A DNA stretch of 64,000 nucleotides from Candidatus Woesebacteria bacterium (GTDB lineage: Bacteria > Patescibacteriota > Microgenomatia > UBA8517), in assembly GCA_963784785.1 (NCBI GenBank), contig CAWASW010000003.1:51216-115215 (forward strand), written 5' to 3'. Of this stretch, positions 48,863 through 53,030 are shown one piece after another. The notes beneath the pieces are model-generated. The model was not told the DNA's origin. It did no database searches and was given only the letters and a program-made list of their open reading frames with translations. Position 1 is the stretch's first letter, and the number at the start of each line of letters is the position of its first letter. The position numbers were made by a program, and so were the translations under genes.

Positions 48863-49410
48863 TTATTCAACACTTGTAATGTCCAGATTAACTGATCCTC
48901 CCTTGGATAGATCTACGATTGAAGTTATTTTAGCCTTTTGAAAATCCCTAGTTTGAATGCCCTCAGCTGTTTTAATCCAAGCTTCACCAAGATTCATATT
49001 AGTTAAAGAAGTGGATATTATTTTTACCCCTTCGATTTTTCCGTTCATAGGAATAACTAAATCTAAATTACCTGATCCGATTGCTAGATTAAATTTGCTT
49101 GAAACATCCTGTGGTAATACTAGCCTAACATTTGAAGCGCCTGAGCTGAGAGACAACTCTTGGACATTTGTCATTTTAAGGTCTAAATCTAAGTTACCAG
49201 CACCTAAAACTAACGACACTTCTGAAAGTTTCGTATTTTTTGGAAGGTCTACGTTTCCGTTTACCTTAGATGTAGTTAGATTGAACTCATTTGAGTTTTG
49301 GACAAAACCAACTTTTGAAAAGATTTTGTGGTTAAAATATCCTGAGAGAGTAGAATCGTTTGAATTAGAAGTAAAATTTACGTTACCTGCACCACTATTG
49401 ATTTTAATTT
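48863..49410 (-). pseudogene. C-terminal portion of a secreted beta-helix (DUF4097/adhesin-like) protein gene disrupted by IS200 copy 2. The N-terminal signal-peptide exon lies at 49934-50032.
   Basis: The minus-strand frame stays open upstream of the track ORF all the way into the IS200 left end. 'MKKVFIILGILVLALIIVNGVNIKSNYSYKISD' on the other side of the IS reads straight into the IS. Confidence 0.5.
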
Positions 49411-49933
49411 TTAAATCTTCTGCACATTAATCCCCAGCCTTTAGGCTGGTGGAGCAAGTATAGTTTGTGGCATACTTGAGGGAAATGTTAAAGTACTGGC
49501 ATGGTGCACACACAAAGCACAGAATTATGATTCATTTGGTATTTTTACCAAAATACAGAAAAAGGATATTACGTGGCAAAGTAGCTACAAGACTTAAAGA
49601 CTTATTCTTCAAAGCATGTGAGGTTAACAACTGGTGGATTGAAGAAATTACAATATTGCATGATCATGTACATATGCTTATACAAATCCAACCAAACTTG
49701 TCCATCTCAAAAGTTGTTAACCAACTGAAAGGTGGTTCATCAAGAATCTTAAGGAAAGAATTTCCAGAGTTAGAAGAATTTCTTTGGGGTGACTCATTCT
49801 GGTCTGATGGCTACTTTGCAGAATCAGTGGGTGCAACAAGTTTCATCCAGGTTAAAAAATACATTAAAAATCAAGTGGAAAGTATGCCACAGAAGGGGTA
49901 AAACCATGGCATTTATGCCATGTGTTTTTTATT
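49411..49933 (+). mobile_element. IS200/IS605-family element copy 2
   Basis: Identical to copy 1 over ~523 bp. TnpA is at 49467-49901. Confidence 0.8.
49467..49901 (+). CDS. tnpA: IS200-type transposase TnpA
   Basis: Identical 144-aa product. Confidence 0.9.
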   Translation: MAYLREMLKYWHGAHTKHRIMIHLVFLPKYRKRILRGKVATRLKDLFFKACEVNNWWIEEITILHDHVHMLIQIQPNLSISKVVNQLKGGSSRILRKEFPELEEFLWGDSFWSDGYFAESVGATSFIQVKKYIKNQVESMPQKG

Positions 49934-50091
49934 TGTCTGATATTTTATATGAATAGTTTGATTTTATATTTACACCGTTAACTATAATTAGTGCTAAAAC
50001 CAATATTCCAAGAATAATAAACACCTTTTTCATATAAATATATTAACAACAATTTTAGACTAATAAAATAGACAGATCCTATTTGGTTTAA

Positions 50092-50110
50092 TTGCTCCTC
50101 GGGCACGATT
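50092..50110 (-). repeat. 19-nt duplicate of the tRNA-Asn 3' end (gaatcgtgcccgaggagca), direct repeat with 50478-50496
   Basis: Exact 19-mer match, same orientation, bracketing the GIY-YIG gene. Confidence 0.7.
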
Positions 50111-50123
50111 CCCTTCGGTAGAC

Positions 50124-50437
50124 TCAGGGTGAACTCACAACGTTCTTACTTGCCACGAGTGCTTCAGCGAACTCAGTGCAAGTATTGGTTCCCAATTTAC
50201 CGTTTATCAACATTTGCTTCTTTGCTCTGGACCAACCCTTAATTTGTCTTTCTCTTTTTGCCGCAAGATATTTACCTAGACATTTTTCAGAGTATATAAG
50301 TTTAAGATCAGAAAATTTTTTGGTAAAAAAGATTTCTTGTCTAGATGAGTTTGAAATCTTTTAACAATGTCGGGCGTTATTCCAACATAAAAAGTTTTCT
50401 GATCGCAAAGTAGCATATAAACATACCACATAGACAT
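50124..50437 (-). pseudogene. GIY-YIG nuclease family (YhbQ/UPF0213-like) gene with one frameshift
   Basis: 'MSMWYVYMLLCDQKTFYVGITPDIVKRFQTH' (GIY...YIG) and, in the next frame, 'GKYLAAKRERQIKGWSRAKKQMLI' (the conserved C-terminal motif). Confidence 0.55.
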
Positions 50438-50476
50438 TGGTTTTTGACAAGTCAGATTGCACTGAGCTTGCCGAAG

Positions 50477-50761
50477 TGCTCCTCGGGCACGATTCGAACG
50501 TGCAACCTTGATCTTACAATTCCCCTCTTGTTACCAAAAGGATTGGACTATCTCATCATCAAAAAATTGATGTCAGGTATATAGTCTCTACACATTTATC
50601 ATTCGACTTCGCTCATGACGAGTTGGTCAAACAAATTTAGCTCGGGATTGACCAAAAATTAATTTGGCGTTCCCCGAATTAGCCTGATTTTTCTTTCCCA
50701 CTTCACAATGAGATGCTGCCATCTAAAACAGGATCCTGCTCTGCCGTTGAGCTACCGAGGA
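50477..50761 (-). tRNA. tRNA-Asn(GUU) split by a ~211-nt intervening sequence in the anticodon loop (5' exon 50728-50761, 3' exon 50477-50516)
   Basis: Exons read UCCUCGG-UA-GCUC-AACGGCA-GAGC-A-GGAUC-CUGU|UAA-GAUCA-AGGUU-GCACG-UUCGAAU-CGUGC-CCGAGGA-G. The anticodon loop CUGUUAA is identical to bacterial tRNA-Asn and the T-loop is canonical. Confidence 0.6.
50517..50727 (-). ncRNA. Putative group I intron inside tRNA-Asn
   Basis: Follows an exon U, with an internal GCAG that can pair with exon CUGU (U·G at the splice site). Ends in G. Contains GGGAAAG (P-like), AAUCAGGC (Q-like), AGAGACUAUA (R-like) and GAUAGUCC (S-like) giving a GACUA/UAGUC P7. Confidence 0.5.
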
Positions 50762-50795
50762 TTATAATTAAAAAGAGCAAGGCTATTATACCATT

Positions 50796-51318
50796 TTAAA
50801 TCTTCTGCACATTAATCCCCAGCCTTTAGGCTGGTGGAGCAAGTATAGTTTGTGGCATACTTGAGGGAAATGTTAAAGTACTGGCATGGTGCACACACAA
50901 AGCACAGAATTATGATTCATTTGGTATTTTTACCAAAATACAGAAAAAGGATATTACGTGGCAAAGTAGCTACAAGACTTAAAGACTTATTCTTCAAAGC
51001 ATGTGAGGTTAACAACTGGTGGATTGAAGAAATTACAATATTGCATGATCATGTACATATGCTTATACAAATCCAACCAAACTTGTCCATCTCAAAAGTT
51101 GTTAACCAACTGAAAGGTGGTTCATCAAGAATCTTAAGGAAAGAATTTCCAGAGTTAGAAGAATTTCTTTGGGGTGACTCATTCTGGTCTGATGGCTACT
51201 TTGCAGAATCAGTGGGTGCAACAAGTTTCATCCAGGTTAAAAAATACATTAAAAATCAAGTGGAAAGTATGCCACAGAAGGGGTAAAACCATGGCATTTA
51301 TGCCATGTGTTTTTTATT
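50796..51318 (+). mobile_element. IS200/IS605-family element copy 3
   Basis: Identical to copies 1 and 2. TnpA is at 50852-51286. It lies 34 bp from the tRNA 5' end and ~25 bp from the IS481-like right IR. Confidence 0.8.
50852..51286 (+). CDS. tnpA: IS200-type transposase TnpA
   Basis: Identical 144-aa product. Confidence 0.9.
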   Translation: MAYLREMLKYWHGAHTKHRIMIHLVFLPKYRKRILRGKVATRLKDLFFKACEVNNWWIEEITILHDHVHMLIQIQPNLSISKVVNQLKGGSSRILRKEFPELEEFLWGDSFWSDGYFAESVGATSFIQVKKYIKNQVESMPQKG

Positions 51319-52398
51319 TAGCATTTTTAAATGCTGTGTATAAGTCAAGGACATTTGCGACATTCCACCTTCATCCATAAAGTACTGAAGTGGTGATTTG
51401 TTTTTAAGTGAGTGATGGGGTCTTTGGGAATTATAATAGATACTAATTTCTGTTAGCTTTTCTCCAAAGACCCCTTTGTTGTGGATGAGGTATAGATATG
51501 GATCAATAATGTCATCTTGTAATGTTCTGTTGTATCTTTCAATGAAGCCATCTACTTTTGGACAATGTGGGTAGATAAAATAATGTGGTATTTGATCTTG
51601 TTTTAACTTTTGATCAAATAAACCTAAATTTTCTTTTCCATTGTCAGATTGCCATGTTTTGATAATTCCAGGATAGACAGATTTGAAGTGATTGTAAAAA
51701 TCTGTCATGTTTTCTGAGTTTTGGTGCTTGTACATTAAGGTCATGCAGAATTTAGATTTAACATCAATTGCTGAGATAAAATAGTCTTTGACACCATCTG
51801 TGATCCTTTCTACAGTATCTGAAATTATATAACCAAAATATGTAGGTTTTGGAGAATACTTAACTCTCAATCTCTTTGTTTTAATTCTGTCCTTTTGTGC
51901 CCACTTTGAACTTGGATCATGATATATTTTTCTTGCAGTTTGATGGAAATAATTATTTCTTTTGATAATATTTCCAATTGTAGATTCTGAAACTGACTTA
52001 ACTCCATTTTCTTTGCAGTAAAAATCAAGGAACACTTTAATCTTTTCCTTTCCGATCCTAAAGTGAGCTTCTCTTTGAGATTTGATAAACTCCACAATTT
52101 TAAGCCTAGTTTGAGGTGTCCTAACATTAATAGGTCTTGTGGAGTTTGGAGCAAGAGAAGCTAAACTACCTTTTGAAACTTTTAACCTTTGTTTCCACCT
52201 TGAAATAACTTTCCTGTCTGCGCTAAAAGCTTCAATACATGCTTGTTCACCATGAACATCATAGAAATTAATTATTTTTAATCTTTGTTTTGCAACTTCA
52301 TCAATATCAAACCTTCTTAAAGATTCAATCATTTTAATCAACTTCTTTGAGCCTTTGATTCTACCAAGTTTGAAGCGTGCCTGAGAGTAGAAGTTCAT
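51298..52398 (-). CDS. DDE (rve) integrase-type transposase with an N-terminal HTH. Its last ~7 codons and stop run past the right IR into the IS200 right end, so its 3' end has been altered.
   Basis: 'ISDTV', 'WQSDNGKEN' and 'VDGFIERYNRTLQ' DDE signature, and 'YNSQRPHHSL'. Confidence 0.75.
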   Translation of the reverse strand: MNFYSQARFKLGRIKGSKKLIKMIESLRRFDIDEVAKQRLKIINFYDVHGEQACIEAFSADRKVISRWKQRLKVSKGSLASLAPNSTRPINVRTPQTRLKIVEFIKSQREAHFRIGKEKIKVFLDFYCKENGVKSVSESTIGNIIKRNNYFHQTARKIYHDPSSKWAQKDRIKTKRLRVKYSPKPTYFGYIISDTVERITDGVKDYFISAIDVKSKFCMTLMYKHQNSENMTDFYNHFKSVYPGIIKTWQSDNGKENLGLFDQKLKQDQIPHYFIYPHCPKVDGFIERYNRTLQDDIIDPYLYLIHNKGVFGEKLTEISIYYNSQRPHHSLKNKSPLQYFMDEGGMSQMSLTYTQHLKMLNKKHMA

Positions 52399-52481: not shown

Positions 52482-53030
52482 ATGAAAAATGTTGATGAAG
52501 CTAGTAAAGAACAGGCTAAAAAACTTTTTGGGAGTGAGGAAATTACAAATTTTGAAATAGGAACAACTTGCGGGCTTCAAGAAATTCACAAATATCTTTT
52601 TGATGGGTTGTACGATTTTGCAGGGGAAATACGTACTAAAAATATCAGTAAGGGAAATTTTCGTTTTGCTAATACCCTTTATTTGTCAGAAGTTTTAACA
52701 AAAATCGAAAAAATGCCTGAGGCTACTTTCGAACAAATTGTAGAAAAGTACTCAGAAATGAATATTGCCCATCCTTTTATGGAAGGTAACGGGCGTAGCA
52801 TGCGAATTTGGCTGGATTTAATCTTGAAAAAACAATTGAATAAATGTATCGATTGGCAAAAAATTGATAAAAACGAATACTTAAGCGCAATGATACGAAG
52901 CCATGTAAATAACTTAGAATTACAAGAGCTTCTTCGCACAGCACTCACTGAAAAAGTTGATGACCGTGAAGTTTTTATGAAAGGTATTGAACAGTCGTAC
53001 TATTACGAGGAACCTGATCTAACAAGATGA
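52482..53030 (+). CDS. fic: Fic/Doc-family protein (AMPylase-type)
   Basis: '[14 protein letters not shown]' is the canonical Fic motif HxFx(D/E)GNGRxxR. Confidence 0.8.

Follow-up and report, generated by a model that had tools for sequence, protein, structure and literature searches.

The stretch of DNA analysed here, 64 kb from a Candidatus Woesebacteria bacterium that we refer to as the window, carries on its minus strand a tRNA-Asn gene that is followed directly by a small GIY-YIG nuclease gene, and the last bases of the tRNA gene recur on the far side of the nuclease gene. On the minus strand the order is tRNA-Asn 5' exon, group I intron, 3' exon up to the discriminator base G73 (50479), the dinucleotide CA, and a 384-nt insert that terminates in the second copy of the tRNA-Asn last bases. 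The repeated 19-mer, GAATCGTGCCCGAGGAGCA, is present in exactly two copies in the window, both on the minus strand (50477-50495 and 50093-50111); a third copy is not found in the window at three or fewer mismatches, and none is expected (100 shuffles). A previous reading of this DNA from its letters alone (hereafter, the sequence-only reading) had reported a 19-nt duplication of the tRNA-Asn 3' end around a GIY-YIG gene. The pair is indeed exact, with coordinates one base away from those given then, and the 19-mer does not recur at unrelated sites of the window. That reading had missed the hairpins at the two ends of the insert, the internal inverted repeat I6 and the two IS200 copies around the whole unit, all of which are described below. 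The features of the locus are the following:

50728-50761, minus strand: tRNA-Asn(GTT) 5' exon, positions 1-35, which joined with the 3' exon gives a canonical tRNA-Asn (ARAGORN)
50517-50727, minus strand: group I intron, which splits the anticodon after U35 and before U36 (Rfam RF00028, 76.6 bits, E=1e-17); context, outside the element
50479-50516, minus strand: tRNA-Asn 3' exon, through the discriminator G73 (from the sequence and the spliced product)
50477-50495, minus strand: upstream copy of the 19-mer, tRNA G57-G73 plus CA (exact repeat)
50460-50478, minus strand: left terminal hairpin, CACT-TCGGCAAGCTC-AGTG, an exact match to the family motif
50438-50459, minus strand: short 5' leader, with no promoter of its own (promoter-like matches in the region are no commoner than in shuffles, and none lies in the leader)
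50325-50437, minus strand: N-terminal part of the GIY-YIG reading frame, from the ATG at 50437 to a T6 run that lacks one T relative to the T7 of protein P0001 of locus L001
50124-50324, minus strand: C-terminal part of the GIY-YIG reading frame, in the -1 frame, with the family residues present; its stop TGA (50124-50126) lies within the right hairpin
50157-50181, minus strand: internal inverted copy of the left motif, over the codons for CTEFAEAL; pairs with 50457-50481 (inverted repeat I6)
50111-50129, minus strand: right terminal hairpin, CCCT-GA-G...C-GA-AGGG, which is the left motif in inverted form and is supported by covariation (see below)
50093-50111, minus strand: second, downstream copy of the last tRNA bases (the tail), matching the upstream one at 19/19 positions

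ARAGORN calls no tRNA on the unspliced window, and only because the group I intron splits the anticodon. The splice sites were placed using the U of the 5' site, the terminal G of the intron and the ARAGORN result on the spliced product, and splicing in silico at 50727/50517 yields a canonical 73-nt tRNA-Asn(GTT), of which the upstream copy of the 19-mer is the genuine 3' end. The intron is the only Rfam match; within the element no family was found at either gathering or E<=10 thresholds. Intron-bearing tRNA genes of a similar kind, all missed by ARAGORN, also occur at loci L004, L020, L021 and L095, which belong to the candidate phyla radiation (CPR).

The GIY-YIG gene is the only significant open reading frame (ORF) between the repeats, and no integrase, either of the tyrosine or of the serine type, is encoded there. 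Its frame-corrected product of 104 aa matches the Pfam GIY-YIG profile PF01541 significantly (E=1.8e-15, 57.5 bits, cutoff 22.6) over profile positions 1-76 of 78, and the uncorrected N-terminal fragment of 53 aa alone gives E=3.2e-8. The catalytic residues of the superfamily (two Tyr, Arg, His, a metal-binding Glu and Asn) are conserved: Y17, G19, R27, H31, E63 and N85, invariant in 16 family members, are all present in the window copy. The single frameshift described by the sequence-only reading is real and consists of one missing T; its placement near 50280 does not hold, as the first frame has its stop there and the lesion lies at 50325-50330, where the window has T6 and the intact element of L001 (94% identical) has T7. 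The ORF of L001 is intact and encodes the 104-aa protein P0001, to which the window protein is 92% identical. Having a tail identical to the tRNA, intact ends and an ORF that is one T short of that of an intact relative, the window copy is either a recent copy that has just been inactivated or the product of a homopolymer sequencing error. The frameshift site (50325-50331, minus strand) reads U_UUU_UUA in the zero frame, which is a classic -1 slippery heptamer, and some full-length protein could still be made from the broken copy by slippage on this sequence. Programmed -1 frameshifting is nevertheless disfavoured, because, among 34 aligned elements, a gap at the column of the T run is confined to the window, and a mutation or homopolymer error is likelier.

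The unit in the window has many relatives. Of 1.84 billion representative proteins searched exhaustively, 5,653 matched at E<=1e-3, 232 at E<=1e-10 and eight at E<=1e-30, which indicates a compact subfamily inside a large superfamily. Close homologues of the window protein (277, at 60-92% identity) are mostly labelled Patescibacteria. A genome scan confirmed at least 464 relatives among the 600 candidate stretches listed, and the left motif alone was found in at least 120 metagenome stretches. For comparison we used 80 genome loci obtained via protein similarity and 120 metagenome loci obtained via the 24-nt motif that follows the tRNA (cited below by L numbers). A tRNA gene lies immediately upstream and on the same strand in 25 of the 39 close protein relatives with enough upstream sequence, and three of these 25 tRNAs contain an intron and were missed by ARAGORN. 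At least 14 types of tRNA precede the left motif in the metagenomes (Ala, Arg, Asn, Asp, Gln, Glu, Ile, Leu, Lys, Phe, Ser, Thr, Trp and Tyr), and His joins them when all loci are considered. Carriage by phages was considered and rejected, since a search of 2.9 million viral contigs for the left motif gave no match.

A common layout recurs among these units. The tRNA gene ends in N73(CA) and is followed by the left hairpin CACT-TCGGCAAGCTC-AGTG, a leader of 25-60 nt, a GIY-YIG ORF of ~100 aa and the right hairpin CCCT-GAG..CCGA-AGGG, right after which come (G)AATCC plus the 3' strand of the T-stem, the 3' strand of the acceptor and the discriminator of the same tRNA. The duplicate thus runs from T-loop position 57/58 to the discriminator N73 (+CA), and the upstream tRNA remains complete. 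When other tRNA 3' flanks were searched, as the sequence-only reading had proposed, this arrangement recurred: a 16-19-nt copy of the tRNA's own 3' end is present at 43 of the 61 distinct tRNA-type junctions with enough downstream sequence. The copy is perfect in 39 cases and has one mismatch in four. As for distance, 39 copies lie 341-508 nt downstream of the junction and four at ~100 nt. The copy follows the host even at T-loop positions 59-60, where GACT, GAGT, GATT and GAGC variants are each reproduced. Because the duplicate tracks each host tRNA, its source is the target, through target-site duplication or copying during repair, and not a fixed att core.

Many right-hand copies continue as N73-CCA, whereas the left junction is N73-CA/CTTCGG (the slash marks the junction); at tRNA-Glu genes the junction reads ...GGGGTCA/CTTCGG or, at other loci, ...TCACA/CTTCGG. 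On the simplest reading of these sequences, the element proper is CACT...AGGG, hairpin to hairpin, inserted directly 3' of N73, and the duplication extends from A58 (or G57) to N73, i.e. 16-17 nt; the pair of loci described in the next paragraph supports this reading. For the window it suggests a true duplication of A58-G73 (50479-50494) and an insertion point directly after G73, and the CA that extends the match by two bases would belong to the native trailer or reflect microhomology at the junction. A distant clade is built differently: at L051 (1337-1822) and L061 (1333-1855) a tRNA-Met gene is followed by a direct and an inverted hairpin, both 5' of the GIY-YIG ORF, which abuts the next tRNA-Met gene with no duplicated tail. 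This arrangement is possibly older or domesticated.

Evidence of presence and absence comes from a single pair of loci, L120 (filled) and L123 (unfilled), which have an identical tRNA-Glu and flanks that are 86% identical over 630 nt. At L123 the tRNA-Glu gene reads ...GGCGGTA/CACTTCGG.., a solo motif, and then passes into the flank. L120 contains a full 404-nt unit ending in ...CCGAAGAG/AATCCCCTTGGCGGTA, followed by the solo motif and flank as in L123. The difference between the two is therefore a 404-nt segment, made up of the element and the 16-nt duplicate AATCCCCTTGGCGGTA, placed directly after A73. The search for empty sites that the sequence-only reading had called for thus produced one unfilled relative, and none for the site of the window itself. 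Several other observations bear on mobility. Tandem head-to-tail copies are found at L013, L031, L033, L116 and L120; ORF-less minis of ~100 bp that have both hairpins and the duplication at L094, L115, L140, L164, L171 and L196; and copies truncated by other insertions at L108, L131, L179 and L187. Two copies per genome are seen in two cases (L015 with L038, and L017 with L040), and many contigs stop at the element. A solo 24-nt left hairpin in the tRNA trailer, followed by host sequence or a terminator, is present at L092, L114, L123, L142, L152, L161, L173 and L188, and several element-free tRNA genes in these solo-hairpin loci have N73-CA instead of CCA. These trailers could be the footprints of excisions; alternatively, the hairpin could have a role of its own.

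Taken together, these data lead us to regard the segment 50093-50478 (minus strand) as one copy of a family of selfish elements of ~380 bp, found in Patescibacteria at the exact 3' boundary of tRNA genes, a reading to which we give a probability of about 0.72. The sequence-only reading had suggested a miniature tRNA-targeting nuclease element, and this suggestion is borne out by the dozens of loci with a ~380-bp unit and a duplicate of their own tRNA 3' end, as well as by the L120/L123 pair.

The ends and the interior of the element were compared in an alignment of 34 diverse full copies. The right hairpin shows compensatory changes at 5/5 pairs, with 98.2% of the cells paired. Its stem occurs as CCCT/AGGG, CTCC/GGAG, CCTT/AAGG, TCCT/AGGA, CAGT/ACTG and further variants, with an inner pair that changes from G-C to A-U, and holds two G-A/A-G mismatches. 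The left stem covaries across the family as well (GCCCT/AGGGC, ACCCT/AGGGT and GCATT/AATGC). The left motif is an inverted copy of the right one and has, on the RNA strand, U-C/C-U mismatches where the right has G-A/A-G. As this inverted symmetry is like that of transposon ends, it favours a role at the DNA level. Three nested long-range helices are also retained, with some compensatory and many G-U-tolerant changes. Helix 1 joins the 5' end with the internal inverted copy over the CTEFVEAL codons and alternates between G-U and G-C (in the window, I6 is 25 nt long and 80% complementary, between the 5' leader and the C-terminal coding region); helix 2 joins alignment columns 114-121 with 302-309; and helix 3, of 16 bp, joins codons 7-12 with 36-41. 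Third codon positions are unusually conserved within these helices. For the whole structure tested, the observed covariation was reached by no shuffle, and pairing dropped from 92% to ~50% when the partners were slid by 1-3 columns.

The helices in the coding region (columns 114-137 with 206-221 and 302-309; ~50300-50410 and 50205-50215 in the window) involve the codons LLC/AKK and DQKTF/KKFSD, and such an amount of structure is unusual in an ORF of this small size. A guide within the element that is complementary to the tail, which would point to an RNA- or DNA-guided mechanism, was looked for and is unconvincing, the longest match being 5.18 nt versus 5.01 +/- 0.09 nt for permuted tails. Because this excess is marginal, the pairing of the tail in the predicted fold of the window copy is probably due to chance. 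Further copies of the hairpin motif (GCATT-TCGGCGAGCTC-AATGC) are nested in the loop of the right hairpin at L007, L010, L020, L024 and L037, and the contigs of L090, L189 and L201 carry arrays of the hairpin motif alone; the motif seems able to multiply by itself.

Proteins of the family are mostly 92-105 aa long and have PF01541 as their sole domain. Among solved structures, the family profile matches best the UPF0213 proteins 1ZG2 (BH0048, E=9.2e-10) and 1YWL (EF2693, E=1.7e-6), whose similar length and domain-only build are also those of the element protein. With the Pfam match, these matches to solved structures settle the fold. To this extent the YhbQ/UPF0213-type assignment of the sequence-only reading stands. 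It does not extend to the motif H-x-x-G-x-G-A-K-Y-T of UPF0213, in place of which the element family has H-x-x-K-x-S-F-F-T-K-K-F (the aligned segments are HasgKGAkYTrg in 1ZG2 and HkdKkSFFTKKF in the element family). We know of no report of tRNA linkage, terminal hairpins or mobility for UPF0213. The spacing of the conserved residues equals that in I-TevI (Y6, Y17, R27 and H31). The NCBIfam profile for group I intron endonucleases, TIGR01453, gives a sub-threshold match (17.8 bits, cutoff 56, E=0.0027).

A functional parallel may be found in the Ssn family (Chenal et al., Nat Commun 2025, PMC11893778), domain-only GIY-YIG nucleases of 94 aa that bind a hairpin repeat in single-stranded DNA (ssDNA) and cleave the strand a few bases 5' of the hairpin. 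Duplex DNA and RNA are not substrates of Ssn nucleases; their genes usually have hairpins on either side, a layout that the authors call identical to that of insertion sequences; the family has been assigned to CDD cd10448 (GIY-YIG_unchar_3); and SsnA restricts incoming single-stranded DNA in Neisseria (PMC11893778). The element resembles an Ssn unit in having a single-domain GIY-YIG protein of ~94-105 aa, with the catalytic Tyr/Tyr/Glu at Y5/Y7, Y17 and E63 compared with Y6, Y17 and E64 in SsnA. In both, the gene lies between short hairpin repeats (the element hairpins are present in all full copies), a GGGAATC-type sequence follows the hairpin (...GCGGGAATCYRG in the NTS repeat of Ssn and ...AGGGAATCC in the element), and the repeats occur without the gene too. 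The differences are that the hairpin sequence is another one and that the element is tied to the exact tRNA 3' end, with duplication of that end. The words 'tRNA' and 'Patescibacteria' are absent from the text of the Ssn paper (PMC11893778). By analogy, we consider that the element may work like an Ssn unit, which does not make it a proven member of the Ssn family. Full-text searches of the literature found no description of tRNA-linked GIY-YIG mini elements, and the element is apparently a tRNA-end-specific variant of hairpin-flanked single-domain GIY-YIG units, undescribed in the searchable literature.

A homologue encoded on a Sphingomonas plasmid is 35% identical to the element protein (hhalign probability 98.7%), and its gene is flanked by CCCTTCGAC..GCTCAGGG hairpins and GGGAATCC, much like the element. 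At this locus (L203, Sphingomonas parapaucimobilis plasmid NZ_CP155752.1, 295515-296542) the GIY-YIG gene lies between nrdR and an RNA methyltransferase gene, and its flanks are formed by long CCCTTCGAC..GCTCAGGG hairpins plus GGGAATCCC. The hairpin theme therefore exists far outside the CPR, and without a tRNA.

Other mobile systems share part of these properties. Like integrase islands and prophages, the element has direct repeats of a tRNA 3' end around its cargo and leaves the tRNA functional; unlike them it lacks an integrase, measures 0.38 kb versus many kilobases, generates its repeat per target instead of using a fixed att core, and has inverted hairpins as ends. Free-standing homing endonuclease genes that duplicate the 3' end of a host gene include the mitochondrial 'mobile ORFs' and the seg genes of phage T4, with SegB, a name that appears in PMC13096335, in the tRNA cluster. 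In these as in the element, a GIY-YIG ORF is inserted where an essential gene ends, the integrity of that gene being preserved by a short duplicate, and the spread of both presumably depends on host repair. The homing enzymes have added DNA-binding domains and long double-stranded sites, and their genes lack terminal hairpins and miniature derivatives. The word 'homing', which the sequence-only reading had used, is not supported in its classical sense for the bare catalytic domain of ~100 aa found here, which has no DNA-binding domain and has its nearest relatives among UPF0213 and Ssn-like proteins, not among intron endonucleases. Finally, IS200/IS605 elements and REP/RAYT systems are also very small, with short hairpins read in single-stranded DNA and gene-less hairpins scattered in genomes. 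They use a HUH tyrosine transposase and covalent intermediates, versus a GIY-YIG hydrolase in the element, and have hairpins in the same orientation without target duplication, versus inverted ends and a 16-19-nt duplication. No HUH Y1 transposase is encoded in the element; the Y1 genes of the window belong to separate IS200 copies that flank it.

How such a unit might be expressed and move can be sketched as follows. Lying between the tRNA and a terminator, the element would probably be transcribed together with the tRNA, by read-through from the tRNA promoter; this is suggested by the lack of a promoter-like site in the leader and by the host terminators that directly follow the tail at several loci (L009, L020, L024 and L032). 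Cleavage by RNase Z after N73 would then release the element as a 3' trailer and create the 5' end of an mRNA. By analogy with Ssn, the nuclease would read its own terminal hairpins and the T-arm hairpin of the tRNA gene in single-stranded DNA, and nick at N73 and in the T-loop (57/58). Since a GIY-YIG hydrolase cannot ligate, host functions would be needed, and host replication or repair would copy the element in, the duplication arising as the ~16-nt stagger is filled. At its right end the element has a conserved GGGAATCC, which is similar to GAATCC of the T-loop/T-stem and may help to link element and target; the T-arm is itself a hairpin with a GAATCC-type sequence after it, like the right end of the element. 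That this is the first transposon-like element driven by an Ssn-type, domain-only GIY-YIG nuclease, with reading of ssDNA hairpins, nicks at N73 and in the T-loop, pasting by host replication with a 16-nt duplication, and expression through the tRNA promoter and RNase Z, and hence a mechanistically new class of insertion sequence, is a tentative proposal that we hold to be possible, and less probable than not. If true, it would also explain the solo hairpins and N73-CA trailers that are common in CPR tRNA genes, and supply Ssn-like nucleases with a natural DNA target.

Several points weigh against a mobile element of this kind. GIY-YIG enzymes alone cannot join DNA. The difference between L120 and L123 could equally be a precise deletion between 46-nt direct repeats, and no empty allele of the window's own site is known from our searches: an exact search for the predicted junction in metagenome contigs gave no match, and for neighbouring proteins of the window there was either no record or one short contig that stops at an IS200 copy. 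The published pattern of the Ssn hairpin repeats, SRM (HGTCWYN(0-2)YYVSBRHN(0-5)WNVSBRGN(0-2)RNCYNB), has 0 matches on both strands of the window and of L001, L010, L012, L166, L180 and L203. In the helix that ties the 5' end to the C-terminal coding region, G-U pairs are tolerated, which hints at a role at the RNA level besides that at the DNA level. Moreover, about one third of the copies have no recognisable tRNA upstream, and their right tail is still tRNA-like; the left flank of these non-tRNA copies matches the tail only in its last 5-8 nt, which at face value fits a carried tail better than a duplicated target. Many of the non-tRNA flanks, furthermore, consist of a separate repeated unit whose own final 16-mer is tRNA-like. 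Some of the non-tRNA cases may be due to recombination between copies or to assembly chimeras and are undecisive: three pairs of contigs (L020/L191, L086/L104 and L190/L176) share the element and downstream DNA and have different upstream DNA, which shows that flank exchange, by recombination or assembly error, does happen. The inference of a carried tail is weakened by this exchange and by the many non-tRNA flanks that end tRNA-like.

The separate repeated unit is up to ~75 nt long (...GGTTCTAAC-N-TCGTCC...GGAGCA, also read as ..ATATAAATATAcTCATTTTG..GGTTCTAAC..GCGGAGC), intergenic, and tRNA-Asn-like in its last 16 nt. It recurs ~0.9-1.1 kb apart between small cassette-like, toxin/antitoxin-like genes, often with a terminator after it, and the GIY-YIG element is inserted right after it. 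Its sites, in oriented coordinates, are:

L166: 1144, 2260, 3160 and 6698
L180: 1650 and 2452
L106: 1458 and 2965
L098: 375 and 1709

The unit has no Rfam match and is absent from the window; an attC-like site, a small RNA or the end of another element are candidates for its nature. No known RNA genes were found upstream of the non-tRNA sites. We rejected a ruler model in which the cut would fall a set number of bases away from GTTC, as the GTTC at exactly -28 in the non-tRNA flanks, which could pass for a pseudo-T-loop, belongs to this separate unit.

The surroundings of the window copy are dense in mobile elements. Two 526-bp copies of an IS200/IS605-family element (49409-49934 and 50794-51319), 100% identical and in direct orientation, each encode a 144-aa Y1 transposase (Pfam E=9e-41) and bracket the tRNA-Asn gene with the GIY-YIG unit, together with a 34-aa ORF. 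The pair could be a composite unit or a recent double insertion; the copies are unrelated to the ends of the GIY-YIG element. The second copy is adjoined by a gene for an IS481-like transposase with rve domains (51298-52398, minus strand) and by a Fic/DOC-family gene (52482-53030, plus strand).

The non-tRNA copies lend themselves to another explanation, in which the tRNA-like tail is carried by the element in the manner of an attP, integration proceeds by homology or microhomology, and the perfect matches at tRNA sites result from homing into the same tRNA species or from later gene conversion. Non-tRNA copies with a tRNA-like tail and only 5-8 nt shared on the left (L001, L005, L009, L014, L016, L026, L027, L030, L032, L034 and L035) would be expected on this account, above all L001 and L005, which carry the exact tRNA-Asn tail of the window with no tRNA upstream; so would L003, L004 and L127, which lie behind a tRNA and yet have a tail that differs from it at several positions. 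Carried tails that move between genomes should often mismatch their host, however, and 39 of the 43 tails match it perfectly, including the species-specific T-stem, the acceptor and T-loop positions 59-60. Flank exchange or assembly chimeras can also produce the pattern of a carried tail, and many of the 'non-tRNA' flanks themselves end in a tRNA-like 16-mer. We therefore consider a carried tail unlikely. Somewhat less likely still is that the unit is immobile now and is kept by the host as a nuclease gene in tRNA trailers, with the hairpins and tail acting as RNA signals (for RNase Z, the CCA-adding enzyme, mRNA stability or translation) and the nuclease serving the cell, for example by restricting incoming ssDNA like SsnA in Neisseria. 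The nested long-range helices within the mRNA, G-U-tolerant and compensatory, would suit such a gene, as would the strong purifying selection on the protein (60-92% identity, invariant catalytic residues), the precedent of a domesticated role in Ssn, and the distant clade of L051 and L061, with both hairpins upstream and no tail. It accounts poorly for the spread over at least 14 different types of host tRNA, for multiple copies per genome, tandems, ORF-less minis and truncated or frameshifted copies, and for a presence/absence pair bounded by the duplication; and the inverted symmetry of U-C/C-U on the left and G-A/A-G on the right suits DNA ends, not one RNA.

Two further origins had been raised by the sequence-only reading. 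Islands that integrate into tRNA genes are classically recognised by direct repeats of the tRNA 3' end, and in this region, where insertion sequences abound (two IS200 copies, one IS481-like gene), the unit could be the remnant of a tyrosine-integrase island in tRNA-Asn, deleted down to its GIY-YIG gene. Decay of a larger island is at odds with a unit of fixed size (341-508 bp, ~380 bp as a rule) and constant ends at dozens of unrelated loci and different tRNAs, with a repeat that changes with the host tRNA, with hairpin ends that meet the repeats to the base, and with the lack of an integrase in or beside the unit. This origin is very improbable, and already effectively refuted by the family comparison. 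The last origin, which we find scarcely credible, would make the protein the homing endonuclease of the tRNA-Asn group I intron, with a gene that has moved out into the trailer. GIY-YIG enzymes are common as intron endonucleases, five loci combine an intron-containing tRNA with the element (the window, L004, L020, L021 and L095), and the NCBIfam match mentioned above points the same way, far under its cutoff. Nevertheless, only ~5 of ~65 tRNA-adjacent copies lie behind an intron-containing tRNA, most being behind intron-less ones; the protein has none of the DNA-binding domains that intron endonucleases possess; and the ORF is found beyond the intron, 3' of the tRNA, in a unit with conserved ends and a duplication of its own. 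A partnership with the intron is thus not upheld.

If the preferred reading of a selfish tRNA-boundary element is true, the family would be among the smallest autonomous mobile elements known, with ~380 bp and one protein of ~100 aa, colonising the tRNA genes of the CPR. It would provide hairpin-reading, Ssn-like GIY-YIG nucleases that act on single-stranded DNA with a concrete genomic function and target, and such nucleases, having a predictable single-strand target in the T-arm/acceptor region of tRNA, would be of interest for ssDNA tools. It would also account for one recurrent cause of broken contigs, of small ORFs that are spurious and of unusual tRNA trailers in CPR metagenome bins. The parasitic strategy would be to settle one base past the mature end of a tRNA, restore the sequence that has been displaced, and borrow the promoter and the processing of the tRNA.

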